From Raillietiella orientalis (Eukaryota), in assembly GCA_036172245.1 (NCBI GenBank), contig JAYWIR010000111.1, positions 124,001 through 166,247 of the forward strand: a stretch of DNA of 42,247 nucleotides. Reading direction: 5' to 3'. The notes beneath the pieces were generated by a model. The model saw nothing but the letters and a program-made list of their open reading frames with translations, ran no database searches and had not been told where the DNA came from. Each line of letters opens with the position of its first letter. The first letter of the stretch is position 1. The position numbers and the translations under genes are program-made. Below are positions 12,013 through 42,247 of this stretch, one piece after another.

Positions 12013-13300
12013 AACATGGAAACGCCAGTTCCGCATGGTCTTTGTCATCCTGTTGCAAACAACGAAAGCAATGCTGCAGGCATTCTAGGGCTTTGCCGTT
12101 AATTAGACGTCCCGCCTGAGCTACCGGCGAGATCGGCGGCTTGCTGTTCGGTGAGAGCGTGTGTCTCAAGCAACAGCACCAGATCGAACTCGCGCAAGAC
12201 GTAAGATACCAACTTCCCATTATCATTGTGCTGCAGCCTGTTGACGTTTCAACAGGTCATGTGGACGCGACGGGAAAAGGCAAGCCCACTCATTACTGCT
12301 GCAGACATGCCAGAGCTACCTTCTCCCCGTCCGGCGAGGCATCAGCCTGAAGCACGGCATAGTGGAGGGTGCAGAAGCACTCGTTCTTCCCCACGCCACT
12401 TGCGGCTCTCTGGAGTCGAGGAGAATCGCCTTGGACTTAAGAGTATCGGGAACCGTTCCCGGCATCAGGTTTGCTACAGGAAACTTTGGGCTTGCGCGCA
12501 GCCTAGGGTTTCCCGTGGGCTTGAGGAACCAGAATCGCTGCTGACGGACTTGCTGCCATGGGACTCAACCTCGGAGTCCCAATTTCGTGTGCATGATAGA
12601 CGTTCTTTCTACCTACTCTTTTGCTGGCAGCCTGTACCTGCTCCAGCATTCAGCGAGGTTGCCGCCGTCGCCTATCCCGATTTCAACGTCTCGGCGTCGT
12701 CTAGTTCCCTTTCGCTGCGGGCGACAGCGGCAGCGCACATGACCGCAGCGGAGACTTTTTCTTGCGAATTTCTTGATGCACGGTGCTGCCTCCTCACTTT
12801 GCCTACCTCTCTGATGAGGAAATGGGAAGGATTTCTTGTCTTCCACTGTTTATTCTTTTCCTCCACAAGAGTCCAACCGGATTCATCGTCCTCTATGTTG
12901 CCTCGGCTTAATGCAAATGCTGCAGTATCTTTTGCATTTTTTCGTGGTCCTCCGGATGGGCGATCGGGGCCAGTTTCTTCCTCGCCACCTTTGCCTTTTC
13001 TATCTCCTTATCGCAAGGTACGAACAAATTCGAGCAAGGTTTTGCAGTCTTTCCCACGTATCAAATCTCTGCGGACGGATTGTCTTCACTTTTTACACTT
13101 CAAGGAAGTTATATGTGAGGTAGACAAGAAAAGGATACGCGTATGGTCCGTCTTCCTGTACTTTGTTCAGACTGGAAATGTAGAATTCTATGATGAATTT
13201 GTTAAATGGAAGGCAAAGTTTGTGCACATAAGTTCTTGCAAACGGCGTTTGAAATTCATTTGAAGATTGAATACAGGTATTTTCGAATACTGCTGATAAA
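12013..13300 (-). mobile_element. Decayed LINE ORF1 and start of APE (same subfamily as 35538-40686)
   Basis: 12230-12630 is recognisably similar at DNA level to 39260-39660 (e.g. ATCGGGAACCGTTCCCG.CATCAGG). The ORF2 start reads MSAAVMSGLAFSRRVHMTC*NVN. Decayed knuckles at ~13070-13180. Confidence 0.8.
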
Positions 13301-13926
13301 GATGGTGTGAATCGCAGTGCAGATTAAGTGCAAAGGAAAGAGTTGAAGGATGAAATGCACAGAAGCTAGAGATGATTATGGTGATGTTAACTGTAAATAA
13401 TCGTTGGTAGTGGTGGCGGATGATGCCTATTAATGTTATTGTAAACAAAACTCCATAAGAGAGATAGATAATGACGATAAAATATTGCTAGTGGAATGTT
13501 TGACATTATGATAACCAATGAACTAATTAATAATCTAAGTAGATCTCTAATTAGATAGTTTAATTTGAGTTTCAATGTTCGACATTATATCAACATCCTT
13601 AAACAAACCAGTTAACTATTTATCACAAAATGCAAGCACCTAGTTGTTACGAGTACAATTAAATAAAGAAAACCAAACTTTTAAAAGGTAAAATTTAGGC
13701 AAATCAGAAAATCAAACCCATATTAAAATAGCACAAACACAAGAAATATAGCATTTATATCTTTGGAATTGATCAGTTTTGTGTGCTATGCGGAATCCTG
13801 AATGTATATGAGGATAGAAAAAGTCTACTTACTTGTGCTCTTATAAAGAAAGGATATCTATGCAATGAGTCTTTTATTCAGGGTTATTCAAATTTTCAAG
13901 AACAAAAAACAGCAAAATGCAAAGAC

Positions 13927-13932
13927 TTTATT
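13927..13932 (-). terminator. AATAAA polyadenylation signal of gene body L
   Basis: TTTATT on the + strand, about 33 nt downstream of the TGA at 13965. Confidence 0.6.
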
Positions 13933-13964
13933 CTACACTAATCAATTAATAATAAGACTTCTAG

Positions 13965-14841
13965 TCATTTAAGCCCACTCAACTTCACAGTAACGAGTGT
14001 TCCAGGACTCCATGTGCATCGTAGTTTGCCCGGTACAGGAAGCACATTCCGGCCTTGATGTAGCCTGAAAAATTTCCACGCTTTTGTTCTCAATCGAAAA
14101 CTTTCCATTGTAATCGTGCCGAGCATTCGAAGAATACAACACCCTGCTTCCGCAAAGTACATTTCTTCGAGAAGATATGAGAAAGTAGGCGCATGGAAAA
14201 GTTTCAAGCAACAAATTGCAAACTCAAACCCTCCGAAACATTCCTCAAACCTGTTGGAATTCAGCTGAAGATTTCAAATGAGCCAGCTGCACGCATTCCA
14301 AAAAGGTATTCGCGATTAAACACTCTGTATAATGAACACAAAGCAACCTAGGCGATTTCTATTAACTAATTTCAAAGAAGCCATGCACAGCAGTGAAACT
14401 CATAAGGTAATAAGGAATCTATTCCAATGCGGGTAGAATCAAAACATTCCAAACTAGAAATAAGAGTGCTCAAAAATACATACGTTTCAACACTCTGAGA
14501 ATAAGTTACAGTACAAGAACGGTCTGGTCCTTCAAGGAAGAAATTAATCTGCTCACTTGCACCAGGACCTTCCACCTGAAATCAGAAAGAAATTCGCACT
14601 TCAGGTAGAATTGGCTCACCTCAATGTCGGTACTGCATAGACCTTGACGTCTATTATGTCTATCATTAGTAAGCTGTACATCACAATCAGTTAGAGTGTA
14701 GTGAAAATAAAGAGAACACGGCCCTGTCAGATGTGTAAAGTACAGCTCTTCTTCAATAACTCTCTCCTGAATCAAACTAAGGTTCTTACAAAGAGAGAAA
14801 CATTCGGTTCCACTAGTAGAGAATAGAACAACAATGGAAAC
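13965..14841 (-). CDS. Spliced gene body L (last 3 exons, 137 aa); unknown Cys-containing, possibly secreted protein
   Basis: Exons 14841-14620 (222 nt), 14575-14484 (92 nt) and 14064-13965. Splice sites: tttgtag|, |gtgagc, tttcag|, |gtatgt, tttcag|. Open reading: VSIVVLFSTSGTECFSLCKNLSLIQERVIEEELYFTHLTGPCSLYFHYTLTDCDVQLTNDRHNRRQGLCSTDIE/VEGPGASEQINFFLEGPDRSCTVTYSQSVET/LHQGRNVLPVPGKLRCTWSPGTLVTVKLSGLK*. The structure is independently mirrored by the paralogue at 22775-23644. Confidence 0.85.
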
Positions 14842-14894
14842 CTACAAATTAAAAATGCTCAGTTAATTGAAAACATCATGAAAAAATTCAGAAA

Positions 14895-17389
14895 CAGTTT
14901 GCGCAACGCTACGTTAGAGCATCTTGAAGCATAGCAAAGATTGATAACACGGCGAAAGGTCGAAGCAACTGAGTCAAGAGCACTTCTACGAGCGGCACGA
15001 ACCCACAAAGGATCACGAGATATTTCGGTTGAGCGCATTCCATGCAACTGTAAACATCCAATGGGCATTCCATCGGGAACCTCATCGGACATGAGAAACA
15101 CGAAAGCATTCGGTGAACGACGTCGAAATTCGCAGAAAACGACGAAAAAACATCCCGGATACCTGCATATGAAGAGGAGACAACACACGAAAGCAATGCG
15201 ACATTAAATGCATCGAAACTTAAAAAGGGAGGACAAAAGCATCCTTTTCCAAGTATGCAGACTCAGCACCCGTACGCAAGCGCGTTCGATGGACGGAAGA
15301 ATGCCGAGCGGGCTCGTGCCTCTCTGAGGGTCGAAGATTACGTTCACTGGATCCGCGACTCCGCATCCAAATTTATTCGAATCTACGCCAGAGCCTTCAG
15401 TGAACTACAAGCAGGGTTGCCGCGGAAATGAGCATGGTCAGAAAAGGGACACTGCGCAGTCAAGCAGATTCCGCAAAGAGTAAGTTGACCATGTCTGAAC
15501 TTCGGAGCACACGTAACTGCAACAAAAACGCCACTCCACTTTCCAGACGCGCAAAGGAGCAATCACTGCTTAAGAACGTACCACGGAGCTAAACTCCATC
15601 GAGAAACTCGGCACAGATTAAAAAAATTCTGTTATGCGGCGCGATGAACGCACGCAGAAACGATGTCGCGCTTCAACGGAAGCATCCACGGAAAAGCAAC
15701 GCGCGAAACCCAGAGGAAACCAGACCACGTCCTTCCGCAATCGACATGCCAACGAACGGAGAGCTAAAGAAACGCTCCATTTCCCTCAGTTGTACGATGA
15801 AAGTAGACAGCGCGACGCCCGATAAAAGAAGCCGCACGCATGAGGAGGAAACGTGGTATGACCAGGGATGCAATGCCTCTCTCAAAGAATGCTGCTTACG
15901 ATGGTGAACAAGATGCGCCACAGCATGCTGCTGTCTTTCAGAGCTTTACACGGGGCGAGTCGTTTCTTGAGCGCTGCACTCAAGAGACGCTCAGACCTTC
16001 TCCAGCATTTATACCGACTTACGCACATTGCCAACCAATACCAGCCATGGTGAACACCTGGAACCGCACGAGTCAAATGTGTAGAACACTCATCGCTCTC
16101 GGAAGCATCGCATCGCAGTATCGGTGATGCAATCCTAAAGGACGGGCAGCTGCAGGAACGTTAGCTGCAAGTCAGTGCAGCGAAGCAGCGTTACAAAGCT
16201 GCGTTTACGATGATCGGCAAAACGCCGTGTAAAGGCACGGATCACTGCAGCCTACCGATCCGCGAGCCAAAACGGCAAAGAAACACTTGTGGTACACCGA
16301 GAATTCTTCCACCGATTGCTGTTGCCACAGTTGTTTCTCACAAGAAATACCTGCGAATCAAATGATGCGAAGCGAACGATCTCCGTATCGTAATGAAAAA
16401 GGGCCTGGCATGTTGGGATCGACAACTACATGTCCACAGGAATAAAGGAACTTGAAAGACCAACAAAAAGCAATGGGAGATCGCAGCGGTTTTTCTGCTC
16501 ACTAGGGCTGCGATGCGTGAATGATACTAGTCGATTGAGCGCTGCACGAGAGGATTTTCTTGAACGAAGACATCCTATCAGACTTTCGCTACGCTCCAAA
16601 AACGTACGTCCCTAACGAGTCTAGTTCGCTTTTCGGAATTCTCGCAAAATCTATATCAATAATAATGTGGATCCTTCTCAGCTGCGTCGTCTGTCATCCA
16701 ACACAAGTATGCGGAATTTCTCTTGCAGGTAGGTTAGTTATGTAGAGAGTGGAAGTGCACGGAACTTACATGAAGGCCGTCAACTTTCAAGCAGAATTTG
16801 CGGGAATTACGGGATTACGCTTTTTGAACTGCGATCGCTGTTTAAATGCAGAAGCTGTGAAGGGAAGCGTTCACTGAATGGGACGGAGTCTTCCATGAAG
16901 TGAGTCACATGGTAGCTTTAACCGCAAGCACGAGTTGCATCGCGTGACAGTTGAGAAACAAGATACGCCAAGCTTCCTCCGTGGACCAGTTGTCAGTCCA
17001 TTTGCTGTCCTCTGCACCCCCCATGCTGCTGTTTTTGAGCGCAAGCAGCATGCTGTTGGCGAGGGAGCAGAAGATCTCCTACAAACTGTCAATTCTGGCC
17101 TAAAAGAGAACGCCCGTTCCGGATGCTTAGTTCAAGATTCTCTTAAAGAAAAGCGCGTTCTTCGTTCCGCGATGACGGCGCATTCCCTTTTGAAGGAACA
17201 AATCGGAACTAAAGAAATACGGAGAAACCTTCGAGAGTAGAGAGAACTCGATCGAGATCAAAAGAGGAAGAAGAGACTTGGTGGGGAAAAACGCTAGAAA
17301 AAAGAAAGTCGTCGTTCGAGAACGCACAAAGGAGAGGATAAAGTTCCTGAACACGGTAATGATGGAGAACCCCGACAGCTGGATGGGCA
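14895..17389 (+). repeat. Left arm of 2.5 kb inverted repeat
   Basis: Begins CAGTTTGCGCAACGCTA and ends CAGCTGGATGGGCA. It is the reverse complement of 20192-22691, and mirrored ORFs appear in the ORF track (e.g. 16935..17240 + and 20341..20646 -). Confidence 0.97.
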
Positions 17390-19145
17390 TTTCCTGTGCG
17401 CTAACTCGACGGTGCGGGATGCTGATTCCGCTTTCACTGGATTCTGCACGGCTGCGAAGAGCTCAAATTCGCATCTTTTGTAGAGTAGATTGGATTCGTG
17501 TGCCAACTGCTTCTCAGGATCGTCTTCTAATTTTTCTACTGCCCAACTCTTCTTTAAAGATCACTCTTTTAGGCACATGGCAAGGATGCCTCCAAACGAG
17601 AACTGGTGATCTCAGAAGGACAGAAATTTCTACGAGCGAGTAGTGCGCATCACGAGGATAGAAGCTTCAGTAAAGGTCGAGAATTGCAGGTCACAAAGAG
17701 TCGGTACCCAAGAAGTACGCATTTTTCTTGGATGCAACCGAGAAAAAAAAACGTTTCGCATCCGCGTTGACAGGATGCTGGATGGAGCATCCAGACACGA
17801 ATCACGATGCAGCGTCATCACCTGTGACGTAAGTTTGCCACAGCTTCGAAGTTTCCGATCATTTATTCTTTGGTCCCGGCACGCATGGGCTGGAGGTTTT
17901 TTTTCATCTGCAGTCAGTAAACAAGGCACGACTTGGATATGAGCACCGACAGATGTTCGCCGCGGTTCTGTTCAGAGCTTGAAAGAAAAAAAAGTGCTCC
18001 GTATACCAGGCATGGTCATTGCTTGTTCCAGCAAAGCATCGAAGGAACAAAGAAGAGATCGTCGCCTGGAAGAAATTCAACTGCTTTTGCCTGCAATGGA
18101 TAATGACGCGACATCCAGCTTAGCTGATCGGTCATTTAATAGCAGTCCGGAGTAGGTGCAACATTTTTTCTTGGTCTGGATGAGTTTAAATATCAGTCGG
18201 AAATGGCGATGCTGGGTATCATCTACTGACTACCCACTGACGATAAAAATTTAATGTAACTTCACCCAATCTAGCAGCGCGGCTGCTATTTCTGATTCGT
18301 CTAATTACAATCCATTTACGTGTAATCCCTACATTCCTTTCGAGTCTTCATAGGCCATAGCAAGAATGTATATCAGGCCAAAAAAGATCGATGATACCGG
18401 ATTAGATCGCGCCTATTTACGCTCATGGTCATTATCAGGAGAAGGAGCTCTTCGAAATGAGGAGGAATTTTTTTCCTGAAATGATCACCGTGTAAGTATT
18501 GGACTAAGATATGTAGTGCTTTCGGTTCTCTTAACCTGCTTCCTTTGCATCAAAAGATTTACGCTGAAATCGATGTACAAGGATTCTTTCTTTCACTCAG
18601 CTCACATAAAGAAAAGTAGGTGTTTCTCTGCATAAAATCCTACATAGAGTCTCTGAAGAATCATCTCTGTGGAATTACGTAAGGCACACGTGTCATCTAG
18701 AACAATCCAACCCACAACTGTTTATGTTTTACGAGACTGCAGACGATGGCAGTACTACCGCTGGCAAACACCGGGTGATGATCTCCAGAATATTTTGCTC
18801 TTTTTCGGTAGATTATGCATTTTTTCAAAATGCAAAGGTATTTCTCACTGACTCCTCATCAACGGGCTTTTCGACTTGCTCTCAAGCGAGATTCTCTCAT
18901 TCTGTAGAGACGACCTATGAAACGAAAGAGAGCGTTTTACTGATGTCTTTTAAGCATGTTCTTAGCAAGAATTGCGGAATCTTTTTTTCAACGTTTCTCA
19001 ACTCTCGCGTCGGTGATGGAACAACGCTCTGAGAAGCATTTGATTCCAATTGGTATCGTACTTTAGATACACAGAGTTGCAAATACTCACGCAGCTATTA
19101 AACCATAACAAAAACTCCAGTAGAATCTGAAGTTTAAAAACTCAC

Positions 19146-19169
19146 AGTGGCCTGTAGCCCTTTGTTCAT
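19146..19169 (-). CDS. Candidate first coding exon (MNKGLQAT) in the spacer
   Basis: ATGAACAAAGGGCTACAGGCCACT|gtgagt has a strong phase-0 donor. Spliced to 14841 it gives MNKGLQATVSIVVLFSTSGTEC, which resembles a signal peptide. Short enough to arise by chance. Confidence 0.35.
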
Positions 19170-19289
19170 ACCGCCGTTCCGAAGACAGTCTTCTGATAAC
19201 CCTTCGATTTCGAGTTGGCGCTCGTCTTACTCGTGAAGCAAGCCGAATGCGTCAGACCAGGTGTACCGGGATCATTCGGAGTGCTCACG

Positions 19290-19575
19290 TTTCGGATATT
19301 TTGAAGACTCCAACCCGGGAAAGGAAGGGAAGGGCTGAATGAACTTCCTGGTCGACCACGACATAAGTGGTTATAAAAACATTCTTCTCCTTTTGCTCCG
19401 TCTTTTAGCTTCCCTCTTTACGAAAACATCGACGGAAAGTTGACGGCACGCATCGTCGCCATTCTTTGCGCGCACGGAGTTATAGCACGCTGGAGCGTAT
19501 TGTCGCCGTCCGCTTTCCGACTTCCTGGTAGAAAACCTGGCGCGCACGCGTTTTCGCGCTACTCCCCGGAAAGAA
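19290..19575. promoter_or_regulatory. Candidate CpG-rich promoter in the spacer
   Basis: Local CGCG-rich patch (TGGCGCGCACGCGTTTTCGCGCT at 19538-19560, containing an E2F-like TTTCGCGC). It lies just upstream of the candidate micro-exon and borders a purine-rich tract. Compositional evidence only. Confidence 0.3.
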
Positions 19576-20191
19576 AGTGTGTAAGAAAAGAGAAGGAAGA
19601 AGAAAGGGAATGAAACAATGAAAGAATCTTCAAATCCTATTGCTTGAATGCGTAAGAAAAGAGCAAGGTATGATTAGGAAGAAGAAAGTTTTTCCTGGAG
19701 GAGAGGAAAGGGCAACAAAGCATAATGACCTTCAAGGTTTGAACAGTTTCATGGTAGACCTTAGGATGAAGTGATGTGAAGCGTTAGTATCCCAGGAACT
19801 CTACCCAAATGTGAAGGGAGGGCGACGCATTCCTCGCATCACCGCATCCTTGGCGTCTTTTCGGCACCGCCACCGAGTCTCGGCTTCCTGGGTGTCTGAG
19901 AATGCGCCGCGCTTGTGCCATTAAAAACGCGGAGACGCGCAGCTGCTTACGATCTTGTCTCTCACGACAGTTGTTCATCGTGCACTCTTCCCGCACGCAA
20001 GACACTCTGAGATTACGGAGCAGCCGGCGGAGACCCAAAAATTTCCGGCACAAAGAAACACATCAAAGCGTTCGCAGCAGCAGCAGCCCTTCAACAAATC
20101 TGGCAGGATCCGGAATCCTGGTCTTTCTGCACCACTGATGAAAGCGTGTGTTGCATGGCATGGTGCCTTGAGGGATTACGGGGCCGAGTCG

Positions 20192-22691
20192 TGCCCATCC
20201 AGCTGTCGGGGTTCTGCATCATTACCGTGTTCGGGAACTTTATCCTCTCCTTTCTGCGTTCTCGAACGACGACTTTCTTTTTTCTAGCGTTTTTCCCTGC
20301 CAAGTCTCTTCTTCCTCTTTTGATCTCGATCGAGTTCTCTCTACTCTCGAAGGTTTCTCCGTATTTCTTTAGTTCCGATTTGTTCCTTCAAAAGGGAATG
20401 CGCCGTCATCGCGGAACGAAGCACGCGCTTTTCTTTAAGAGAATCTTGAACTAAGCATCCGGAACGGGCGTTCTCTTTTAGGCCAGAATTGGCAGTTTGT
20501 AGGAGATCTTCTTCTCCCTCGCCAACAGCATGCTGCTTGCGCTCAAAAACAGCAGCATGGGGGGTGCAGAGGACAACAAATGGACTGACAACTGGTCCAC
20601 GGAGGAAGCTTGGCGTATCTTGTTTCTCAACTGTCACGCGATGCAACTCGTGCTTGCGGTTAAAGCTACCATGTGACTCACTTCATGGAAGACTCCGTCC
20701 CATTCAGTGAACGCTTCCCTCCACAGCTTCTGCATTTAAACAGCGATCGCAGTTCAAAAAGCGTAATCCCGTAATTCCCGCAAATTCTGCTTGAAAGTTG
20801 ACGGCCTTCATGTAAGTTCCGTGCACTTCCACTCTCTACATAATCATCCTACTTGCAAGAGAAATTCCGCATACTTGTGTTGGATAGCAGACGACGCAGC
20901 TGAGAAGGATGCACCTTATTATTGATATGAATTTTCCGAGAATTCCGAGAAGCGAACTCAACTCGTTTGGGACGTACGTATTGGGAACTTTGCGAAAGTC
21001 TGATAGTATGTCTTCGTTCAAGAAAATCTTCTCTCGTGCATCGCTCAGTCGACTAGCATCATTCACGCATCGCAGCCCCAGTAAGCAGCAAAACGGCTGC
21101 GATTTCCCATTGCTGTTTGTTGGTCTTTCAATTTCCCTTGTTCCTGTGGACATGTAGTTGTCGATCCCGACATGCCAGGTCCTTTTTTCCTACGATACGG
21201 AGATCGTTCGCTTTGCATCATTTGATTTGCAGGTATTTCTTGTGAGTAGCAACTGTGGCAACAGCAATCGGTGGTAGAATTTTCGGTTGACCGCAAGTGT
21301 TTCTTTGCCGTTTTGCCGCGCGGATCGGTAGGCCGCATTGATCCGTGCCTTTATACAGCGTTTTGCCGATCATCGTAAACGGAGCTTTGTAGCGCTGCTT
21401 CGCTGCTCTGAGTTGCAGCTAACGTTCGTGCAGCTGTTCGTCCTTTAGGATTGCATCACCGATACTGCGATGCGATGCTTCCCAGAGCGATGAGTGTTCT
21501 ACACATTTGACTCGCGCCGTTCCAAGTGTTCACCCTGGCTGGTATTGGTTGGCAATGTGCGTAAGTCGGTATAAATGCTGGAGAAGGTTCGAGCCTCTCT
21601 TGAGTGCAGCGCTCCAGAAACGACTCGCCCAGTGTGAAGTTCTGGAAGGCAGCAGCATGCTGTGGCGCATCGTTTTCACCATCGTAAGCAGCATTCTTTG
21701 AGACAGGCATTGCATCCCTGGTCGGAGCACGTTTCCTCCTCATGCGTGCGGCTTCTTGTATCGGGCGTCGCACTGTCTACTTTCATCGTGCAACTTAGGG
21801 AAATGGAGCGTTTCTTTAGCTCTCGGTTCGTTGGCATGCCGATTGCGGAAGGATGTAGTCTGGTTGCCTGTAGGTCGCGCGCGTTGCTTCTCCGTGGATG
21901 CTTCCGTCGAAGCGCAACATCGTTTCCGCGTGCGTTCATCGCGCCGCATAACAGAATTTTTCCAATCTGTGCTGAGTTTCTCGATGGAGTTGAGCTTCGT
22001 GGTACGTTCTAAAGAAGTGATTGCTTCTTTACGCGTCTGGAACGTGGAGTTGCGTGTTTGTTGCAGTTACGTGTGCTCCGAAGTTCAGACATGGTCAACT
22101 TACTCTTTGCGGAATCTGCGTGACTGCGCAGTGTCCCTTTTCTGACCATGCTCGTTTCCGCGGCAACCCTGCTTGCAGGTCACTGAAGGCTTTTTGCGTT
22201 GACTTGAATAAATTTGGATGCGGAGTCGCGGATCCAGTGAACGTAAGCTGCGACCCTGAGAGGGGCAAGAGCCTGCTTGGCATTGTTCCGTCTATCGATC
22301 GCGCTTGCATACGGGTGGTGAGTCTGCATACTTGAAAAGTAATGCTTTCGTCCTCCCTTTTTAAGTTTCTATGCATTTAATGTCGCATTGCTTTCGTGTG
22401 TTGTCTCCTTTTCAAATGAAGGCATCCGGGTTTTTTTTTCCTGTCGTTTTCTGCGAATTTCGACGACGTTCAACGAATGTTTTCGTGTTTCTCATGTTCA
22501 ATGAGGTTCCCGATGGAATGCCCATTGGATGTTTACAGTTGCATGGAATGCGCTCAACCGAAATATCACGTGATCCTTTGTGGGTTCGTGCCGCTCGTGG
22601 AAGTGCTGTTGATTGAGTTGCGTCGACCTTTCGCCGTCCTATCAATCTTTGCTGTGCTCCAAGATGCTCTGGCCTAGCGTTGCGCAAACTG
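20192..22691 (-). repeat. Right arm of 2.5 kb inverted repeat
   Basis: Begins TGCCCATCCAGCTG and ends TAGCGTTGCGCAAACTG. Reverse complement of 14895-17389. Confidence 0.97.
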
Positions 22692-22774
22692 CTTGCTCAT
22701 TGCTGCGTAATCTTATTGTTTTCATTTGCCGTCTCGCATACGTTATTAATTCACTCATTGCTTATTTTTCGTAG

Positions 22775-23644
22775 GTGATTCCTGGATCTATATGCTATAA
22801 CCAGATTGGTTCTGAGTTTTCTCAGATTCGAAATTCCACTGTTGCTTTGGATAGAGTTTTCACAGATATAATCGGCTTTGAAGATGTACGCGGACCTTGT
22901 GTTCCTTTGTTTACCAACCGTGCAGGTGTATGCGAGTTTGCTGTGACTAATTCACGTTCCACTTTAAGAAGTGGTGTTTGCACTATGACTACATTTGTAA
23001 GATGATTCCTCATAGTGACGGATCTTATTAGCATTTTAGCTTCTGCATACCCAAGCTTCTTTGTCAGTTACTTTATTTCTATCACAGTTTAGTGGCGAGT
23101 GTTATCTTGAATTAGGAGGCGTAAGTCGCAGGTATGTTCTAGTTGTGCTGACAGCATGTATGTGTGATGGAGGTTCCTGTGAAAGGTTGTTTTGATTTTC
23201 GCTCGTTTTTCTGTTGATTCCTGCTCTCGTGTAAACTGTTTTTGGATGTCCGTGGATTTGGAGCTGGTTTTTTTGTCCTTTGTATTCTAGGGAATTTGTG
23301 TACGTACTTTTCTCTTTGTGAGTACATATAACGTTTGTTTCGCCATAGTATACATCCCAAACTTTTTTTTAAAGTTCTCTGTATTTTTTTATTTGTCTCG
23401 GATTTCCTATTTTTCAGTTGTTCTCGATATCCAGAACGTGCACTTCTGAGTGTCTGTGTTTATGAACTATTGCTTAATTTGTCTATTACTTTTTTGCATT
23501 TTCTAATTTCGTGTTTACCTTTGAATATGCTTAAGGCTGCTGCCTGGGCCAAATCCTGGATCCTTTCCAAGCACGTTGAGGTGTGATTGGCGCAATCTTA
23601 GAGGAAGCCATTTCAAAGTTACGTTCAGACCTACACTTGGTTGA
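22775..23644 (+). CDS. Spliced gene body R (last 3 exons, 140 aa); divergent paralogue of gene body L
   Basis: Exons 22775-22996 (222 nt), 23040-23131 (92 nt) and 23536-23644. Splice sites: ttcgtag|, |gtaaga, ttttag|, |gtatgt, ttaag|. Open reading: VIPGSICYNQIGSEFSQIRNSTVALDRVFTDIIGFEDVRGPCVPLFTNRAGVCEFAVTNSRSTLRSGVCTMTTF/LLHTQASLSVTLFLSQFSGECYLELGGVSRR/LLPGPNPGSFPSTLRCDWRNLRGSHFKVTFRPTLG*. Confidence 0.85.
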
Positions 23645-23699
23645 TCAGAAGGTTTTCCACAGTACCTCTCAAAATCTTCTCGGATAATGCGCGTTTGAA

Positions 23700-23705
23700 A
23701 ATAAA
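23700..23705 (+). terminator. AATAAA polyadenylation signal of gene body R
   Basis: AATAAA about 55 nt after the TGA at 23644, followed by a T/GT-rich tract. Confidence 0.6.
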
Positions 23706-24299
23706 AACGTTCAGCACATTAGTTTGGATTTTTTTATGTGTTGCTTTGTTACAGCTGGATAAATAGACAATTAGAGTCCTTAATTCGTGACTTGATCATT
23801 AAGAGACAGTGTGACCTCTGGAAATAAAATGCTTGCAATGAACTTTCGACGGATATTAGAAATTTGTTTTTAAAAACGAATGCTGCAGAAGGAATCATCT
23901 GAGCCCGATTTGGCGTATCTGAACTTCGTTCGAAGCACAGGAAATAGCAGCTAGATCCGGCAATCATGTATTTCCCTAAACAAGGAGTCTTTCTCACTCA
24001 CTATGTTGCTGACTACCTTTTCTCCTTCTCGCAAACTCTGTCGTTTGCTCTCTTCGCGATATCCAGGTTTTCCAAGGAAAAATCAATATTAATTATAAGG
24101 TTTTGTGTTCGCTCTTCCTGATATTCTGCCATGGATAATGAGGATATCGTACCGTTGGATACGTGCAGAATGTCTCGCATGAATATCAAACATCCTTCTA
24201 CAGGTGCAGAATTATCATAGAAGCAAAGCAGTGCACTTGGTCAGCAATTGGGACATTGAGAGTTTCTGGCACACCAAAATGGTCATCCTTTTGAGCAGA

Positions 24300-25460
24300 T
24301 TCACTCGATTAACCAGGAGCAGCAACGGTCGGGACTTCAACGGACGGCAAAAGAGCTGACAGCCACGCTCCAGCAACCACCCAATGACGAGAAGAAGGCC
24401 TTGAGGCGTTCTGTTCAGGTGTAAGAACCAGAAACTTCGCAGTTTGAACCCGAAGCCGGCAAGGCTCCTGATGTCAATTTGCCGAAACCAAAAGCGAGCA
24501 GGAAAGGAGGCAACCAGCGACGCACCGTTTCTTTACAGGCGGGGGAGGAAATCCGCTCGGACCACGACGACAAGCATGCGATGTCCGCGGGATTTCGCGA
24601 CTACTCGCAGGAAGCGGTACAGTGAAAGCGGGATCCGTCAACCTCCTCCGACGGTTCGCCTCCATGCAAGGATCAACACATCGCCATCGAAATACATCGA
24701 CCGCAGGCTAAACAGGAGTCGAAAGACGCCACACAATCAACATAAGCACATCCACGCGTAGACTGTCCTCCTGCCGTCGACTGCACGTAATCTGTTGGAA
24801 CGTCAACGGGATGCGTCCGCAACAGGAAAGAAGTGGCCGCCAGCTACCGGGACATCGATCAGGCGCTTCTGCAGTAGACGCACGTGCTCCACGCAGGGGA
24901 GACCAAGGAAACAGAACGGATCGCAGGCGGGCGGCTACTATACGAAAACGGAAAAGACTGCATTCGCGGTGTGGCTTTCATTCTCAAACCAGCCGTCGTT
25001 GATGCGTAGCGCGTCGTGCACTTTGACGAAGAAGGTCAAGTCAGCCATCCTGTGATCAAGTGGTCCGATGCGATCGACCTCGTCATAACCAACGTGTTCA
25101 CGCCCTGCACGAGATACAGACTCGCAAAACGCAGTGCGTTCTTTCGAAGCATGCGGCGAGACTGGCTGGCTGAAGCACACCTACGAAGGGCACACCTGCT
25201 TGCCGGGGACATTAACGTCCCCATGCTGGTAGGTTCGTTCAACATACGACCACAGCTGGACAACGAGATGTGCGCTGCAATGCATGAGAGAAACTTGTTG
25301 ACCGCTGATGCCGGGAAGGAAACAAGGATCAACCACATGTTCCTCGACAAACACCTGTGTTCACAGAAGAGAAATAGAAAGGCAGTGACTTCAGAATTTT
25401 TCGACAACCCCAGGCTTGTGCTGGAGATACATCAGCGCAGTAAAGGTCCACCCTGACAGC
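24300..25460 (+). mobile_element. Decayed LINE ORF1 tail and APE endonuclease
   Basis: CWNVNG at ~24792. ORF 25016..25456 contains VITNVFTP, HLLAGDINV and NHMFLD. The left boundary is uncertain. Confidence 0.8.
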
Positions 25461-27560: not shown

Positions 27561-30080
27561 TCTGCCACATACCCCAAACGCGACGCCCACAGTCCGGCAA
27601 GGAGCTTGACGTGCGAATGTGTTTTTTCAGCGCACGTCTGCGCCTGTTGCGGAGCCTTTATTCGATTGAGCTTCTGTGTGTGCGGCATCGCCGCTGTCCT
27701 ATTGCAGCAATGCCTGAGGACACCGAGATGGATGTCGGAGGGGGAGAGGCTTGTTCCTCTCTTCAGCCCATGGGGGTGGAGGCCACCGCCCCCACGAAGG
27801 CGAGGGCAACCGACCCCTTGAAAAAGGGGGCAACCGCGTCCTCGGATTTGTCTTCTGCAACGACGGAGACCTGAAGGGCCGTGGCTGCAGCGCCTTCTCC
27901 TGCAGCTATAGCACAGAAAAATGCCTACCTTGAATAAGGATACAAGCCGTCCTTGATTTATAAGGTAGGGAACTTGTTTTTCGGCAAACACGCCCGCAAC
28001 TCCGAAAAAGAGTTGCAGCGACTGCACGTTAAAGAGGAGGGACTGGAAAATCTTCCCGTGATGAGTGGGGGTCATCGGGTGGACTTGACTTGCAAAGATG
28101 CAAGCCTGGCTCAGCGCCTGCTCAATACACCCATCACGCTGGAAGGCCGAAAGGTTTTCCCGGTTACGGAGGATCGCTTTATTGCGGCGCACTCCACTAA
28201 GGTAACTCTGCGCATAACGAAAACTGGCGTGCAGGAGGAGTTCAAAAAATACGGTACGGTGCACGCGCTGTGGACCAAGCCCAACGTCTTCCAAACCTAT
28301 GGAAGAATGTTCAGTAGCATGAACGCAGCGCGACTGAACGTCCACGAAAACGGTGGGCTACCCCACGTACTGAACGTTGGCAACGAGATGGTCGAATTCT
28401 GGTACGTGGGAGAGCCCAAGTACTGTGGAAACTGCGATGCCACAGGACACCTGAAAAAACGGTGCCCTTACATCCAGTGCTTTCACTGCGGGGTGAAGGA
28501 CCACCTTTGTAAAGTGTGTCCACAGCAGGAACCTCCAGCGCAATCTGCTTTGAAAAAACCTGAAGCCAAACGCTTGGAGAAAGTGAATAAATACAAAGAG
28601 GTGAGAGATAGGCATAACCAAAAGCCAGAGCCCGAACCCTCTTAGCAGACATCGGTCGAGAATACTCCCGACGACGCTGGCGAGAACAAGTGTTGGCGGA
28701 TGGCGAAGCCAAAAACCCCCAAAAAAAAGAAAACCGAAGGCCTGACAGCGGAACCCGCGACATCTCCTCTAAATAGGAGACAACTACGCGGATTGCTTCG
28801 CGAATGTTCGGTTGCCTTGCAGCGCGTGAGGGTCCCAGAGACTGCGAACGGGGGAGATATCTTTAGCCTCGTTGCCGACAAAGACGCGACCGCGGAAGGC
28901 GAACTCTCTGTGCAAACAGATGGGGAACCGCGCTAAGCGCTCGAAGCAATCGAGTAGGCCGCCTTCCAACAACCGGCGGAAGATCTCGCGGCCAAAGTCG
29001 CCGACCATGAGAACGGCTTGCGAAAGTCCTTGCAAAGGCCGCACGCGAGCAAGGCACCTCCGACAGGTGACCGCGATCCGGATGCCGGAAGTTCGTTCTC
29101 CTCTGCGGAGGCACTTCCGGAGAAGACTGGACGGAAGTATAATAATCCGCAGAGGCGCATCCCGACGAAGGAGAGGGACGTACCGGCAGCTTAATGGGAA
29201 GCCGGCTGCGTGGGAACGAAAGAAGGGATTTTTCCACCCTTTACGACCGAGCAGCTGGTCTCCTCCATGAAGGAGTGGGAGCAGGTGGGTAATTGCCGTT
29301 CCCTTCCACCGATGGGCCTTGCGGAGGAGATAGTGTTGGAGGAGGGGGAGCAGACAGTTCACAACCGCTCCCCCCCGCCGTCCGTCCCAGCCGACGAATC
29401 GGTGTCCCTGGAATAGAGGGAGCAGGTGCGTGAAACCCGCCCTTTTCCACCGATGCGTCCTGCCGAGGAATCGGTTCCTATAGAGAAGGGAGTACCGGAG
29501 CGCGATGCTCTTGCCCCTCCTCAAGCCGTCCTGCCTGACCAGGTGGAGGGAGCCCCACTGTCGGTTTCCCGGTAATAACACCTGGGCTCTCCTGACGCCG
29601 TCGGATACGCGTGGCCTGCTGGAAAGTGAACCGGCTGCGCGACGACGGCAACAGACGGGACACGGCCGCCACGCTGCTTGACTTCGACCTGACACACCTG
29701 CAGGAGATCCAAATGATCATCGCGGAGAACGCCCAGGAGATCAAGAGGATTGCAGGGGGACGGTTGCTGTGGCAATGAGGCACCAAATACACCTGAGGCG
29801 TCGGGGTTTTCATGAAGCCGGCGGTCGACGCTGCCTTCAAGAGCGTGCGCTTCGACTTAGCCTGGTCGCGTCGGCCAGCTGATTCTCAGGTGGTCCGACA
29901 CGATCGACCTCCACGTAACAAACGCCTCGGCTTGCTTGAATGAAAACGTCGGAACAAACCTGTACGGCCCCAGCGGTGCGGCCAGGTATCAGGAACGTAT
30001 ACCGTTTCTGGAAAGCCTGAAGCGCGACTGGCTGGTGGAAGCGAACGTGCGTAGGGCTCACTTGATTTCGGGAGACTTCA
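27561..30080 (+). mobile_element. LINE 5' UTR, ORF1 with two CCHC zinc knuckles, and APE N-half
   Basis: ORF1 starts MPEDT at ~27710. 27953..28645 has CGNCDATGHLKKRC and CFHCGVKDHLCKVC (CX2CX4HX4C twice). APE motifs VACWKVN, NLYGPSG and ISGDF follow. Confidence 0.92.
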
Positions 30081-31330: not shown

Positions 31331-31335
31331 GGAAG

Positions 31336-31373
31336 TAGGTTAGGTTAGGTAGGTTAGGTTAGGTTAGGTTTGG
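31336..31373 (+). repeat. Short (TTAGG)n telomere-like tract
   Basis: TAGG TTAGG TTAGG TAGG TTAGG TTAGG TTAGG TTTGG. Confidence 0.9.
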
Positions 31374-35537: not shown

Positions 35538-38500
35538 TTTATCGCCCGGGTGCGCCGGGGCGTTTATTACAAACTATACGGGAACAAAGTTCCCGGACAA
35601 AGGACATAGAGTAACGAAGAGGGTGCGAACCCCGACACGCAGGTCGGTAAGACGTAAGTCCGGAACGGGAGGGAGGGGACCACAAATACACCGTATAGGA
35701 AAAATAAAAATAAACATATGCAGGGCAGGGGACAGGGATCTTTGGTACGGCCGTTCCTTTCTTTCAGAACCGGCGATGGATGCCGGGGATCTCTCTCCTC
35801 ACGCTCTCTGGTAGAAGGGTCCACACGGCAGCCGACGACATGCTGGCGCTGGCTAAGCCGGTGGGCTGACGAAGGATGGCCATCTTTTCCACTTGTTGGT
35901 GGGCTTTGTCGATGGCACGAATGCAACACACGGTTACAACAACAGCACCAAAGAGCAGGCCGCCTGGCGTGAAGAAGCGTCGCATCAAATTTCTCGCGCT
36001 TTCCCCCTGGTGCAGGAGAGCTGAGGCCAGCCTCCGCCACAGTCCTAGGAGGGCACCGCAGTCCAAGAGCAGGTGCGGGAGCTTTTCCACTTCTCGCACC
36101 GCTCACAGTTTGGGGAGACAACTCCCCCGATAACAAGGTTCGTGCGCTGGTTGGAGCGAAAACCCCAATGCAACAGCATAATCACGTCCTGCTTCCACGG
36201 AAGGGGGAACACAGAAGTGTTCAAATACGAGGGAGGAACCACAAGTTCTTCGGAGGGCACCCTCACGTGTTCGCTTAACCGAAGGAGTCCCTTCGGAACG
36301 TGGCGAGGCGTGACGTCTTCCGCCAGCTCGCATGTCCTCCAGACGAAGATAGGTCTCGTTGTTCCTGCGATGGTGCAGGCGACCTCCCATCTCGCCCGTT
36401 CGCAGCGGTCATCTTTTACCCTGAGGGCTGACAGTGCGTTAACGAGGTGGGTGACGGCCAGGCGGGTCGACTTCTCCTGGCTGTTGCACACCTCATCCAC
36501 CATGCAGTACGGGGAGAGGAGAGCGCAACGGAGTTCCAGGACGGAAACATTCTGGTGGTTTGCACAGCCATGCAACGGTTCCTGCCGTCAGGCTTGAAAG
36601 TTCGTTGGGCGGCAGGAGATCCATTCCTGGGCTTCCAGGAGCCGGTAGAGAGGTTTCAAGAGGAAAGCGAAGCTTCTCGTGGCGCGCTCCGCGTACGGCC
36701 GCAGCGAGAGAAGTCCATCGCTGCCTGTGCAGCGCAGCAGAAGCAGACGCGCGGGTGCGCACCAAGGAGTGGAACAAAGGTTGGCGCACAGAACCAACAT
36801 CCGAAGCTGCACCTGCAGCTCGATTCTCTCCAGAGTCAGGATGCCTAAGCCAGCTCCCCGACGCGGAGGCACCAAGCCTTTGAGGCGGATCCTGGACCTC
36901 GCAGGTCCCCACAGAGCGTTCTTTAACAGGCTGTGAGCCTGAAGCTTGGCCGAGTAGGGGAGCGGGGAAACAAAAAGCAGAAGACGCAAGAGGGGGGAAA
37001 CGAAGGTGTTCCATATCGTGGCCCGCTCCGGCAGGACGAATCTGCCATGGTGTATCGGGCTCAGGACATTCGATGCCTTCCGAAGGCATTCCGTCCACAC
37101 TTCCACTGGGCTGATGTTCCCCAGCGGAACGCCCAGATATTGCATGGAGGAAGCGGTCGGGATCCCCAGGCGGATCCAGTCGGACTGCCCCTCCCACGAA
37201 GCACCAATAGGTACGACCACTCTCTTGCTCCGGTTTACGCTCATGCCCGCTCTCCGCCGAATCAGCTCGAAGAAATCCTCGAGACTGGACGCCGGGGTGG
37301 TGATGGGAAAGAGGAGAAGCAATCGTCAGCTCAGGCCGCCACAGACGACGTTCCTGGACAAGAGCTCGGCAGGTTGGCCACCGTCAGCCTGTACGCCCTC
37401 AGCACCAACTCAAAGAAGATGCTGGAGAGCCACGGGCTTAAGCTGTCGCCCTGCCTGATGCCTCGACGAACCGGCACGCCGTACACGTGGCAGCCGCTAA
37501 AAGAGATGGAAATGCGCGCGTGGCGCCAACAAGCGCGCAAATGTGCCACGAGTTGCACCGGGAGACCGACACCTTCCAAGAGCTCCAGCAGGAGATCCTG
37601 ATTTACGCAATCGAACTCCTTGTGGAGATCGACCGCTACCGCCAAGGCACACGGCGCTTTCCCAGGTCCAATGCAGCGACTCCTAGCCTCGGCAGCCGCA
37701 GATGCGGTTGCCTGGCTGTCGTGCGCCACGCAACGTTGCAGCTCAAGCCACGTACGCGCCAATCACAGGTTCGCCTCCATGGACCGCCTAAGAACAGCGT
37801 GAGACTGCTCCGGACTTACCACGAATCCAGCGATCCTGCCTAGGCGCGCTACTTACAGCCTGGAGAACAGCTTGACGTTCGCATTCACCAAGGTAATGGG
37901 ATGCCAGTTGCTTAAACGGCGCATGTCTCCGCTTTCCGGCAAGAGACGCTCCCTTGCTAAGCGAAACGAGGCCGGTACATTGCCCGTCACTTGCTTCCGC
38001 AAAGAAAGCCTCAGCACCAAAAAGATGAGTTCCGCCGCGAAGCACTGGAAGAACTCCACAGGCAGACCATCCTCACCTGTCGCCTTACACTTCTTGAAGC
38101 CCGCTATAGCGGAAAACATTTCTTCCGCCGTGAAGGGCAAGTCAAGTGTGGTGCGTTCTTCCTTGTCGACCGCCGGGGAATCCGCCTGCAGGAGCAGCTC
38201 CGAAAGACGGCGTTCCGTCGGCTCCCTAGCATACAACGAGGAGTAGTAGCGCTTTACGAGGCAGCGAACTTTGGCCACGCCCGAGCACTCCAGGCCCTAG
38301 TCGTCGAGCAGAAAAGCTGCTCCCGACTGCCAGACCTGGCGCTCGGCCTTGGCCTTGCACTCCGCAAGGTACCGTACGTCCGAGCATCGGGAGAATTGGC
38401 GGGCCTGCAGAAACTCTCTGCAGTTGGCTGCGCCTTCTTCGAAGCCACGGGGAAGCACGCGCAAGGGTAACCGGCTGCAGAACTCGCGGAACAATCTTTT

Positions 38501-40686
38501 CAGATCGTCCCAGTCCACGAGCTCTCCAACGGTAAAGGTCTGGAGATGCTGGCGGAGGTGCTCCGCAGCCACCGGATTTCTCAACCAGTCGGCCGGCAAC
38601 CTCCAGACGTGCGTCGAAGGGCCCTTGCCAGGCGGGAGTAGCTAAAACTCCAGCCTGTAGTGGTCGGAAAGCTCGGACGGCTCGTGACCTCTTCGACCCA
38701 CCGGGCAATGCAGTTGATCGTCGAGGAACAGATGGTCCGGCAAAGCACGCATCCCGGGATCGTCGGCCAGCAAATTCGAGGCGTGCACCGACGCGCACAT
38801 CTCGTTCACCAGCCGTTTCTCCCGGCGACTGTGAGACTCCTCCGATAGCGCGTGGACGTTGAAGTCCCCGGCTTCGAGGTGAGCCACGTCGGGGCCGGAG
38901 TTGCTGAGACAGCGGTCGCGCAGCCTCTCGAAAAACTCCAGTTTCTCGGTGTGACGCGCGGAGCCGCTTGGCGCGTACACGTTCGTGACGACAAGGTTGA
39001 TCGATTCGGACCACTTGAGAACAAGTTGGCCCACACGACCTTCCTTGTCGAAACAAACGCTCCGCACTGCACTTGCCACACTGCGCTGGACAAGGAATGC
39101 GACTCCGCAGGTATTCTGAGAGCCTGACATCCAATGGAGCGTCCCGCCTGCGCAAACTTGCAGATGGGCCGCTTGCTGCTCGGAGAGTGCGTGAATCTCC
39201 TTCAGCATGGCCAGATCGATGTCGCGCAAGACGTTGGCAACCAATCGCCTCTTCTCGTTGTCCTGCAGCCCGTTGACCTTCCAACAGGCCACTCGGACGC
39301 GACGGGAAGAAGCGAGACCGCTTATTGCTGCTACGGACATGGAGGTGCGTTCCTCGCCCCGTCCGGCGAGGCATCCGCCGGGAGCACGGCGGATGACGTA
39401 GCGCAAGCGCTTCCTGTCCTCGCCGAGCCGCTCACGGCCGGCTCGGTCGAGTCGAGGACCATTGCCTATGGCTCCGAGGAGCATCGGGAACCGTTCCCGA
39501 CATCAGGCTCTTGCCTGGCAAGTTTTGGCTTGCGCGCAGCCCTGGCCTTCACCGGGGCTTGAAGAGCCTTAGCGCTGCCCTCGGACTACTCCTCGGAGTC
39601 CAAATTCCTCGCGCGCGCCGGGCGTTTCGTCTGCCTCTTTTTTTGCTGGCAGCCCGGAGCTGGTCCAGCACTCTTAGAGGGTGCCTTCGTCGCCGATCCC
39701 CCTTCCTGGGTCATGGAATCGGCAGCTCTTCTCTCGCAGCGGGTGTTTGCGACGGCGCGCGCGGCGGCAGCGGTGGCTTTTCCTTGCGCCTTCCTTGGCG
39801 TGTGGGGTTGCCTCTTCAGCCCGCCTACCTTTCTGATCGGGAAGTGGGAAGGATCGCGCGGTTTGCTCTCCTTCTGTTCCCGACGAAGGTCCAGGCATCC
39901 TCACCGCCTTCCTCTTTGCCTCGGTTGGGCGCGAGGTTTTCCAAGGTCCTTCGCATCCTTTCCAAGGCCTCGGATACGGCGATGGAGGCCAGTGTCTCCT
40001 TCGCCACGTCTGCCTTCTGCACCTACTTACAGGAAGGTGTGAGCAGAGTGGCGGGATTCTCGTGGGTTGCGCGAGGCTTTTCAGCCTTTGCTACCATTCC
40101 ACCCGCCGTGACTGGCTTTCTTGTCGCGGGCCAAGGGGGGCGCGACCCCTTTCTCGACGCTCCGGCGGACTTCCCGGGCGTGCAACCGCTATTTTGCTAT
40201 GTAGCGAGAGCGGACGGAATTGGCGGTTTTGCAGTCTGCCCTAGGTTTTTTCCAGACTGCTTTGCCCGGGGATTATTTTAAGCAGCTTCGAGAAGCTTTT
40301 TGCCCTTTTGTGCGGGCATTTGAGAAGCATTGCTTCCAAACACGCCCGCGCAATCGGACTTTGTGCTTGTCCGCTGCGAAACCTCGTTCGCCCCGAATTT
40401 CTTCCCCGAAGACGGAGCGGATGGAGTCGGCGCGAACGGCGATGTTGCAAGGAGGTTACTTGTCCTTCTCTTTAGTTTTAGCTCGGCGCACTCCTTAATC
40501 AAGTTACTGAGCAGCTTACAGTATCGGCAACTGCTTGTTGGGCACTTCCGTGGACGGTGGCCCTTCTTCCAGCAGTTGTCGCAAGCTGGGGTTTGCCCGG
40601 CAAACCGAAGATAGACGACAAAGTCACCGAGGAGGATCTGCGGAGGCATGAGCTTCCGATCGTCCATAGTGACGCGCGCCGTCGCG
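35538..40686 (-). mobile_element. Most complete LINE copy: partial ORF1 and full-span ORF2 (APE, RT, zinc-binding), frameshifted
   Basis: ORF1 knuckle CDNCWKKGHRPRKC. ORF2 begins MSVAAISG...VACWKVNG, then NVYAP, AGDFN and SDH. RT motifs NWHPITLVN, VDLHKEFDCV, GIRQGDSLSP and QYLGV. C-terminal CERC. 3' terminus at 35538-35568. Confidence 0.95.
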
Positions 40687-42247
40687 ATTCACACCCAGAT
40701 GTGCCGGGGCATTTATTTCATTGAAATGAAATTACATAGAAATGTCGCGTGGCGAACCCTAAGGTACACCACTCCAAAACATTTTGCTGGTTACCGGCTC
40801 CATGCCGGAGAGGTCCTTCCGATGTGCGGAGATGGAAAATAAAGAAAAACAAAAAGAAACAAAAAGTTGCAATGTGGGGGGGAACAAATGTTGTAGGGGT
40901 GGGAGGGCAGGAAAGGGAAGACGGTGCGCGTGGAAAGGTCCTCTAGATCCTATTCAGGATCCGCACAAGCTGAGTCCTTTCAGCACCCAAGTTGCGCCAC
41001 TTGCGTACACTGCGCGCGAAAAGGCGAGTCCAGTGTAAGGCGTTGCCGGTTGGCTGACGCCTTCTTCTGGTGGCGTTCCAAGCCTCCACTATTCCTCTGA
41101 TGCAGCAGAGGACTGGTACGCTAGCCGGCGGGGACAAGGCGTCACTACAGAAGACGCGCATTATAACGTCCTTTGGGCCGCATCCGCGCAAGTCCAGGAT
41201 CGTCGCGAGACGATCCCACAAAGAGGGGAGGGCGCTACACCCAAGGAGAAGGTGGAGGAATGTTTCTTTTTCCCCAGTCCGGTCACAATTAGGATCCACA
41301 GACCCCCGGGTTTTGTGGTGCAGGCGTGCTATGAATGAAAATCCCCTGAGAACCACAAGAAACGACACATCCTGCCATTTCAGGGGGAGGGATGCACTGT
41401 TCCAGAACGCTGCGGGCCACTTGATCTCTTTCGGAGATAGTCCGAGTAGCTCGCCCCAGCGTCGAATTCCGTTGAGCGGAACACTCGGCGTCGCAGCTTC
41501 AGCTAGCTGCCAAGATGTCTACAAATTTTTTGATTGTGTCCACCCGCCTATAGTGCAGGACACAGTTCACTTCCCCTGCTCGCTACTGTCCCTGGCATCC
41601 ACAAGGAAAGTCAGCACTGAGGCGAGGGGGGTTATCAAGGTCCCCAGAAGCTTGTCGTGGGACTGAACGATCTCCTGCAGCGCCCAGCGGGCGTGCCTTT
41701 CCATACAAGTGTTACTTGTGCCCGCCGGGACGTGGATCTTTTCCCAGATGGAGACTCACTTGTGCAACCAGGCGGAGTAGTTTCCTGAGAGGCAGGAGAT
41801 CCAGGCGTTTTCTCGAACCGCAACGAAGATGCGTCGCAGCAAAGAGCCACAGTATGGTCTTCTGCAGACGCGCGCAGACAGAAACGACAAAAGTCCGCCG
41901 ATTCCGCAGACTCATTGGGCTAGCAGGCGTGCTGGAACGCAACAAGGCGTGTCCCACAATTCGGCCGCGAGGGCGAGAGTCCTGAATTCAAGTTGCAGTT
42001 TCATGCGCTCCAGCGTAAGTACGCCAAGTCCACCGTCCTTACGTGGAACGCACAAGTCTTTGAGCCTCACACGGGACCTCCCTTTGCCCCCACGACTGTC
42101 CTCAGGAGGCACGCTGCTCGTTTCCGAATAAAATAAGGGGCGGGGCAAACAAAAAGTAGGGGGCGAAGGAGGGGAGCTGCAAATGCGTTCCACACCGCGG
42201 CCCGTTCCGGCAAGTAAAACCTGCCTTGCAGGAACGGACCGATCGCC
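40687..42247 (-). mobile_element. LINE ORF2 C-terminal part with 3' UTR (runs off window end)
   Basis: RVRLKDLCVPRKDGGLGVLTLERMKLQLEFR and CDRTGEKETFLHLLLGC. Terminus at 40687-40717. Confidence 0.9.

Follow-up and report, generated by a model that had tools for sequence, protein, structure and literature searches.

Cone-snail toxins and amphibian skin peptides combine a conserved signal or 5' part with a hypervariable mature part framed by cysteines. In published accounts, palindromes of mammalian sex chromosomes are kept alike by arm-to-arm gene conversion (PMC8600007, PMC8327919, PMC8981503, bioRxiv 10.1101/800185). The working definition given there for mammals sets arm identity at >99% and arm length at >8-10 kb, and conversion biased towards guanine and cytosine (GC) is reported for palindromes (PMC8981503). 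Here we describe a locus that resembles each of these systems in part. It lies in a window of 42,247 nucleotides (nt), the whole stretch of Raillietiella orientalis contig JAYWIR010000111.1 that was analysed, and comprises two predicted genes, L (13965-14841, minus strand) and R (22775-23644, plus strand), transcribed divergently from the two sides of a 7.8-kb palindrome (arms plus spacer). We lean, with moderate confidence, towards reading the locus as an old inverted duplication of genes for secreted cysteine-rich proteins, arranged head to head, in which the 5' halves have been homogenised by arm-to-arm conversion and the gene bodies have diverged.

Two predicted genes of the same architecture

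Three exons were delimited in each gene by checking exons and splice sites. For R these are exons of 222 nt (22775-22996, plus strand), 92 nt (23040-23131, plus strand) and 109 nt including the TGA stop codon (23536-23644, plus strand), and the introns between them measure 43 and 404 nt. L, on the minus strand, has exons of 222 nt (14620-14841), 92 nt (14484-14575) and 100 nt including TGA (13965-14064), with introns of 44 nt and, in phase 2, 419 nt. The 222-nt exon of R begins directly after a TAG that doubles as splice acceptor, and that of L likewise follows a TAG acceptor. The L exon has a hydrophobic start and carries a conserved sequon and three aligned cysteines, and the motif G.N....P..LRC.W lies in the last exon of L. 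All four internal introns open with donors of the type GTRNG (GTAAG, GTATG, GTGAG and GTATG) and end in AG. Once spliced, the frames are open over 140 codons in R and 137 in L, and both stop at TGA. An AATAAA motif is found 56 nt past the stop of R (23700-23705, plus strand) and 33 nt past that of L (13927-13932, minus strand).

The initial annotation of this DNA had proposed the shared exon lengths of 222 and 92 nt, the similar intron sizes (44 and 43 nt, 419 and 404 nt) and the downstream AATAAA motifs, all of which we re-derived from the sequence. It was silent on two points, the adjoining 2.5-kb palindrome and the absence of a start codon from the gene models. Overall, the evidence supports L and R as real, unannotated and anciently diverged paralogous sets of protein-coding exons that share one architecture, with splicing predicted.

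Similarity and constraint between the two proteins

The predicted proteins align without gaps over 123 residues that include the third exon, which extends an alignment previously described as gap-free for the first two exons. Identities number 18/74 in the 222-nt exon, 5/31 in the 92-nt exon and 9/32 in the last (the initial count was 18/74, 5/31 and ~10/32), and protein identity overall is 23-27% (27% over 119 amino acids (aa) by blastp, 48.9 bits). Six motifs and five cysteines that had been listed as shared occupy the same positions in both proteins: the motifs start at residues 15, 27, 40, 53, 80 and 109, and the cysteines align at residues 42, 53, 69, 95 and 121. In total the proteins contain six and seven cysteines, a sixth, N-terminal one being unaligned, and each has an N-x-S/T sequon at residue 20.

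By Smith-Waterman alignment the full proteins score 116, against 28.8 +/- 5.0 for shuffled sequences, and the 222-nt exon on its own scores 84 against 23.3 +/- 4.3; none of 2000 shuffles reached the observed score in either case. For the last exon alone, 6 of 2000 shuffles did as well as the real sequence. Outside its coding frame, the 222-nt exon has five further frames with 2-12 stops; these score at or near chance, being matched by between 10 and 380 of 500 shuffles, versus 0 of 500 for the coding frame. At the DNA level the 222-nt exon alone rises above shuffled alignments (z 3.9), and the intron DNA of L and R gave no alignment above shuffles (z 1.9 and 0.3). Nucleotide identity over the 123 ungapped codons is 0.40, versus 0.26 expected from composition; for intron 2 the values are 0.31 and 0.29. 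Because the introns are dissimilar and the other five frames lie at chance, we conclude that constraint acts on the protein.

By codon position, L and R are identical at 0.42, 0.46 and 0.36 of first, second and third positions, respectively. The proportion of nonsynonymous differences (pN) is 0.57 and that of synonymous differences (pS) is 0.70, the latter close to saturation. Similarity confined to the protein, together with near-saturated pS, points to a very old split. The shuffle tests, the contrast between exons and introns, and pN of 0.57 versus pS of 0.70 all bear out the earlier suggestion that purifying selection has kept both frames open.

A palindrome with nested levels of divergence

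L and R lie outside the arms of the palindrome and point outward from it. A blastn self-comparison matches 14892-17389 with 22694-20192 in inverted orientation at 92.97% identity over 2503 nt. This defines a left arm of 2498 nt (14892-17389), a right arm of 2503 nt (20192-22694) and a unique spacer of 2802 nt (17390-20191) without internal symmetry. Neither arms nor spacer matched Pfam or Rfam, and blastn found no other self-match of the stretch 13001-24400 anywhere in the 42-kb window. Unique stretches separate each arm from the adjacent 222-nt exon: 50 nt on the L side (14842-14891, minus strand), putatively the 3' end of intron 1, and, by sequence comparison, 80 nt on the R side (22695-22774, plus strand). 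L and R show no significant similarity over these 50-80 nt (z 1.8).

The arms differ by 180 substitutions, comprising 95 transitions and 85 transversions, and by three gaps of 1-2 nt. Fungal repeat-induced point mutation, which would leave almost exclusively C-to-T or G-to-A transitions, was considered and is ruled out by these numbers of transitions and transversions. Gaps are very few relative to substitutions, which may reflect the mutation spectrum of the organism. At such a ratio (3:180), intron lengths of 43/44 and 404/419 nt can be kept while the sequence is randomised.

Divergence is uneven along the arms. The inner 652 nt (16738-17389 in the left arm, 20192-20843 in the right) differ by 1.5%, and the outer 1851 nt by 9.0%, with a change point at 20844 (likelihood ratio 53, reached by 0 of 300 permutations; chi-square over 10 bins, p = 9e-6). 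The overall arm divergence of 7% stands against saturated introns just outside the arms. Levels of divergence are thus nested outward from the spacer, from 1.5% through 9% to saturation, a pattern better matched by repeated conversion spreading outward from the middle than by one duplication event.

The arms are non-coding: they show no coding signal. Among the frames of at least 50 codons that are open in both arms, none has an excess of synonymous differences. The ratio of nonsynonymous to synonymous differences exceeds 1.5 in all of these shared frames except two (6:6 and 7:8), and in most it is ~2.5-3:1. GC content is 0.49 in the arms, compared with 0.46 for the spacer and 0.39 for the gene bodies. 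A 47-nt stretch of the arm had no exact match in metagenome contigs. The spacer includes a purine-rich low-complexity stretch at ~19560-19630, and sequencing depth in a DNA run spikes within 19544-20077 (17, versus 0-3 around it), probably from unrelated simple repeats.

A putative first exon and promoter within each arm

The three-exon models contain no ATG, so an upstream exon is required and the models do not represent whole genes. Candidates for exon 1 were sense-strand ATGs in arm, spacer or junction that are open to a phase-0 GTRNG donor within 60 codons. Each side offers seven, and on both sides the same homologous site of nine codons gives the most hydrophobic joined N-terminus. This putative first coding exon, an ATG plus eight codons followed by the donor GTAAGC in phase 0, would lie at 15900-15926 (minus strand) for L and at 21657-21683 (plus strand) for R. 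The two exon 1 peptides would differ at one of nine residues (V versus L). Joined to the next exon, they give hydrophobic windows (Kyte-Doolittle) of 3.12 in L and 2.24 in R. The L N-terminus follows the textbook pattern of a basic residue, about 12 hydrophobic residues and small residues ahead of the first cysteines; R follows it more weakly.

The sole sense-strand TATA[AT]A of each arm is located 87 nt upstream of the proposed ATG, at 16008-16013 (minus strand) on the L side and 21570-21575 (plus strand) on the R side. Only one other ATG occurs between box and proposed ATG, and it overlaps the TATA box itself, so a transcript starting ~30 nt past the box would meet the proposed ATG first. 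As in the introns of the genes, the sense strand has an excess of T over A; it extends between ~21100 and 23700 on the R side and has a mirror image on the L side.

We infer that each arm holds a TATA box, the bulk of intron 1 and a nine-codon exon 1, which would contribute the Met and the first part of a signal peptide. Given the conserved N-x-S/T sequon and the putative signal peptide, the L and R proteins are probably secreted and cysteine-rich. A 34-codon candidate for the first exon (22501-22602 / 15085-14984) was rejected for its weak donor, GTGCT. Trans-splicing at the acceptor of the 222-nt exon, with the AUG provided by a leader, was also considered.

Search for relatives

The initial annotation did not recognise the protein family and had pointed to Pfam and tblastn as checks. 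We found no match either in searches with single exons of 30-73 aa, a length at which only fairly close relatives are detectable in such libraries. A HMMER profile of both 222-nt exons run against 1.84 billion representatives returned two matches; both were rejected as translated tandem repeats that match around TGPC only. For the six exon-encoded pieces Pfam returned no family at E up to 1 and 10, and sequence profiles of the PDB gave noise only (E 0.75 and 2.7). The best scores in the ESM Atlas, 0.90 for R (unnamed or bacterial clusters) and 0.76 for L, were not used. A structure model of a fragment, too poor to use (predicted local distance difference test score 59), had no match. The beta-rich extracellular fold put forward in the initial annotation is thus as conjectural as before, although the shared sequon and the putative signal peptide favour secretion.

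Within the window, neither tblastn nor a profile search against all six-frame open reading frames (ORFs) uncovered a third member of the family. Scans for a related locus drew pattern matches from metagenome contigs (107), viral contigs (43) and prokaryote genomes (82), none of which proved to be a relative. We provisionally regard L and R, on these single-exon searches, as an orphan family.

One DNA run contains a 235-nt contig that can be placed on 23495-23646, where intron 2 of R ends and its last exon lies; it shows 28 differences from the window (~82% identity). The contig could represent another member of the family or a related strain, and this copy of the last R exon raises the prospect that the family may be larger. 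The same run also yields, at low depth, contigs identical to the window, one of which bridges the outer edge of the left arm (14773-14923). The run may be the source sample and hence not independent.

Proposed origin and alternative explanations

In the reading we favour, an old inverted duplication would have yielded the head-to-head pair, with its inner part surviving as the palindrome. Each gene would encode a precursor of ~146-149 aa with five aligned cysteines, one unaligned N-terminal cysteine and one N-glycosylation sequon, and each arm would contain the promoter together with exon 1 and then ~1 kb of intron 1. Repeated arm-to-arm gene conversion would hold these 5' halves 91-98.5% alike. 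The reach of conversion may have shrunk over time, leaving the nested tiers and a boundary that falls in intron 1, 50-80 nt short of the 222-nt exon. The mature-protein exons beyond that boundary, long unconverted, would have diverged to saturation, with selection preserving their frame, splice sites, length and cysteines. Gene conversion is the homogenising process we propose, and the arm GC of 0.49 is weakly in line with GC-biased conversion of palindromes. The palindrome, with this proposed conversion boundary inside intron 1, is what the present analysis adds to the initial annotation.

A number of observations weigh against this reading. As regards the genes, ATG is absent from both three-exon models, that of L being without any Met codon, and all splice junctions are predicted from sequence. 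Taken by itself, the 92-nt exon shows no significant similarity, its score being equalled by 491 of 2000 shuffles. The case for conservation draws on two sequences, single-exon searches having found no relative, and because synonymous divergence (dS) is saturated its ratio to nonsynonymous divergence (dN/dS) is unreliable. Exon 1 is likewise a product of sequence logic: the joined N-terminus of R is only moderately hydrophobic (2.24, versus 3.12 in L), and three other candidates, of 2, 6 and 43 codons, are common to both arms, although we judge them less likely. As regards the palindrome, arm identity of 93% is far under the >99% of textbook converting palindromes, and arm GC exceeds spacer GC only slightly. 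Furthermore, two successive segmental copy events would look the same as conversion unless an outgroup or population data were at hand.

This last point leads to the alternative that survives best, although we consider it improbable: the same gene pair, in which one or two one-off events (fold-back or template-switch duplication) copied the 5' region, followed by neutral decay. The differences between the arms do look neutral, both in their 95:85 ratio of transitions to transversions and in the nonsynonymous to synonymous ratio of ~2.5-3:1 in most frames. The two tiers could equal two events, and the outer tier, within arms 93% identical, was not recently converted. However, mere chance would have to make the copied block stop 50-80 nt short of the homologous exon of an ancient paralogue that was already in inverted orientation. 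That accident would be needed a second time, the end points of the two events being nested around one spacer, whereas a shrinking homogenised core needs no coincidence.

We give somewhat less weight still to the idea that L and R are dead relics, the 3' exon sets of a once-functional family with open frames left over. The absence of an ATG from the checked exons, the gene-poor setting full of debris from long interspersed nuclear elements (LINEs), and the lack of a homologue in protein collections, as searched with single exons, would all agree with this. Yet 137-140 codons remain open over three exons in both copies, in DNA of ~39% GC, despite saturated synonymous sites and introns, and all eight internal splice dinucleotides, the sequon and five cysteines are kept. 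The retention of open frames, splice sites and cysteines implies that selection acted for most of the period after the split, so that any death of the genes would have to be recent in both copies.

Long inverted arms around a spacer resemble foldback-type elements, and the window is rich in retroelement fragments. The arms might accordingly be two independently inserted copies of a mobile or dispersed repeat, or arms and spacer together a single element with long terminal inverted repeats. We regard either as very unlikely. There is no target-site duplication at the outer arm ends, no transposase, reverse transcriptase or other Pfam domain in arms or spacer, and no further copy of the arm in the 42-kb window. 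A single insertion between L and R would also put the acceptor-led exons only 130 nt apart, and it is improbable that two copies inserted independently, in opposite orientation, at one and the same intron position.

That the similarity is chance or residual non-coding resemblance, with no genes at all, is effectively refuted: although the models were found by eye and the 92-nt exon is not significant in isolation, 0 of 2000 shuffles reach the protein score, one of six frames is open and similar, and the exons are alike but the introns are not.

Conversion along the lines we favour would also allow a bolder and decidedly speculative extension, to which we attach little probability. The locus might act as a self-homogenising diversification module, in which the palindrome locks promoters, 5' untranslated regions and signal-peptide exons together and the boundary in intron 1 frees the mature exons, giving co-regulated, functionally distinct secreted proteins with no known relatives.

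Genomic surroundings and implications

Outside the L/R locus we identified no other recognisable gene in the window. Fragments of retrotransposons without long terminal repeats (non-LTR) occur at 567-1244, 27938-28645, 36588-37762, 38642-39502 and 40943-41518 (RVT_1, weak zf-CCHC, Exo_endo_phos and zf-RVT domains), and word-based protein searches with two LINE ORFs found no relatives. A stop-free frame of 352 codons (12205-13263, plus strand), which has no Pfam match, adjoins the AT-rich flank 3' of L. Near 13100 there is an abrupt shift in composition, with GC dropping from 0.51-0.57 to about 0.30. An interstitial run of about seven TTAGG units is present at 31335-31370, with a GCTGAAT x3 repeat 90 nt upstream. 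TTAGG is a telomere-type unit in some animal groups; the run in the window is too short to name a taxon.

If the gene models are right, annotation based on ORFs or homology would miss two real genes amid retroelement debris, and L and R would found a protein family without detectable relatives. The locus would also place a sharp, nested boundary between homogenised and freely diverging DNA inside an intron. If the proposed history is true, a single gene would combine concerted evolution in its regulatory and signal half with deep divergence in its mature half, and the reach and direction of palindrome gene conversion would become directly measurable at a small locus. It would then offer a DNA-level route to the pattern of conserved signal and variable mature peptide, which is usually attributed to selection.

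Comparison with known systems

At the level of the protein, we presume some resemblance to small secreted beta-sandwich domains with six cysteines (ML/NPC2-like, Ig-like, apicomplexan SRS or 6-Cys), unsupported by any search. The similarity lies in size (~125 aa when mature), in a complement of about six cysteines, and in a Cys-x-Trp close to the C-terminus, after which comes a strand-like stretch. Unlike these domains, the single exons of L and R have no Pfam match at E up to 10 and no PDB match beyond noise, and the proteins have no hydrophobic C-terminal tail for a lipid anchor.

At the level of the DNA, the closest described systems are the mammalian palindromes, as portrayed in the accounts cited at the outset. 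Like them, the locus has inverted arms around a unique spacer, paired gene copies, somewhat raised arm GC, and arms whose likeness greatly exceeds what an old duplication would lead one to expect. Unlike them, its arms measure 2.5 kb and are 91-98.5% identical (93% overall), which places the locus outside their definition by size and identity. In those descriptions of mammalian palindromes, whole genes sit inside the arms and stay identical. Here the arms hold only the putative promoter, exon 1 and part of intron 1, whereas the protein-coding bodies fall outside them and have changed to saturation.

Like the cone-snail and amphibian peptides, L and R would pair a near-identical signal start (one of nine residues differs) with mature parts that are ~25% identical and fixed in their cysteine positions. 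In those families the contrast extends across many paralogues and has no tie to a palindrome; at the present locus, conservation also takes in 2.5 kb of non-coding DNA. That so much non-coding DNA is conserved alongside the putative exon argues for a process acting at the DNA level rather than for selection on the signal peptide.

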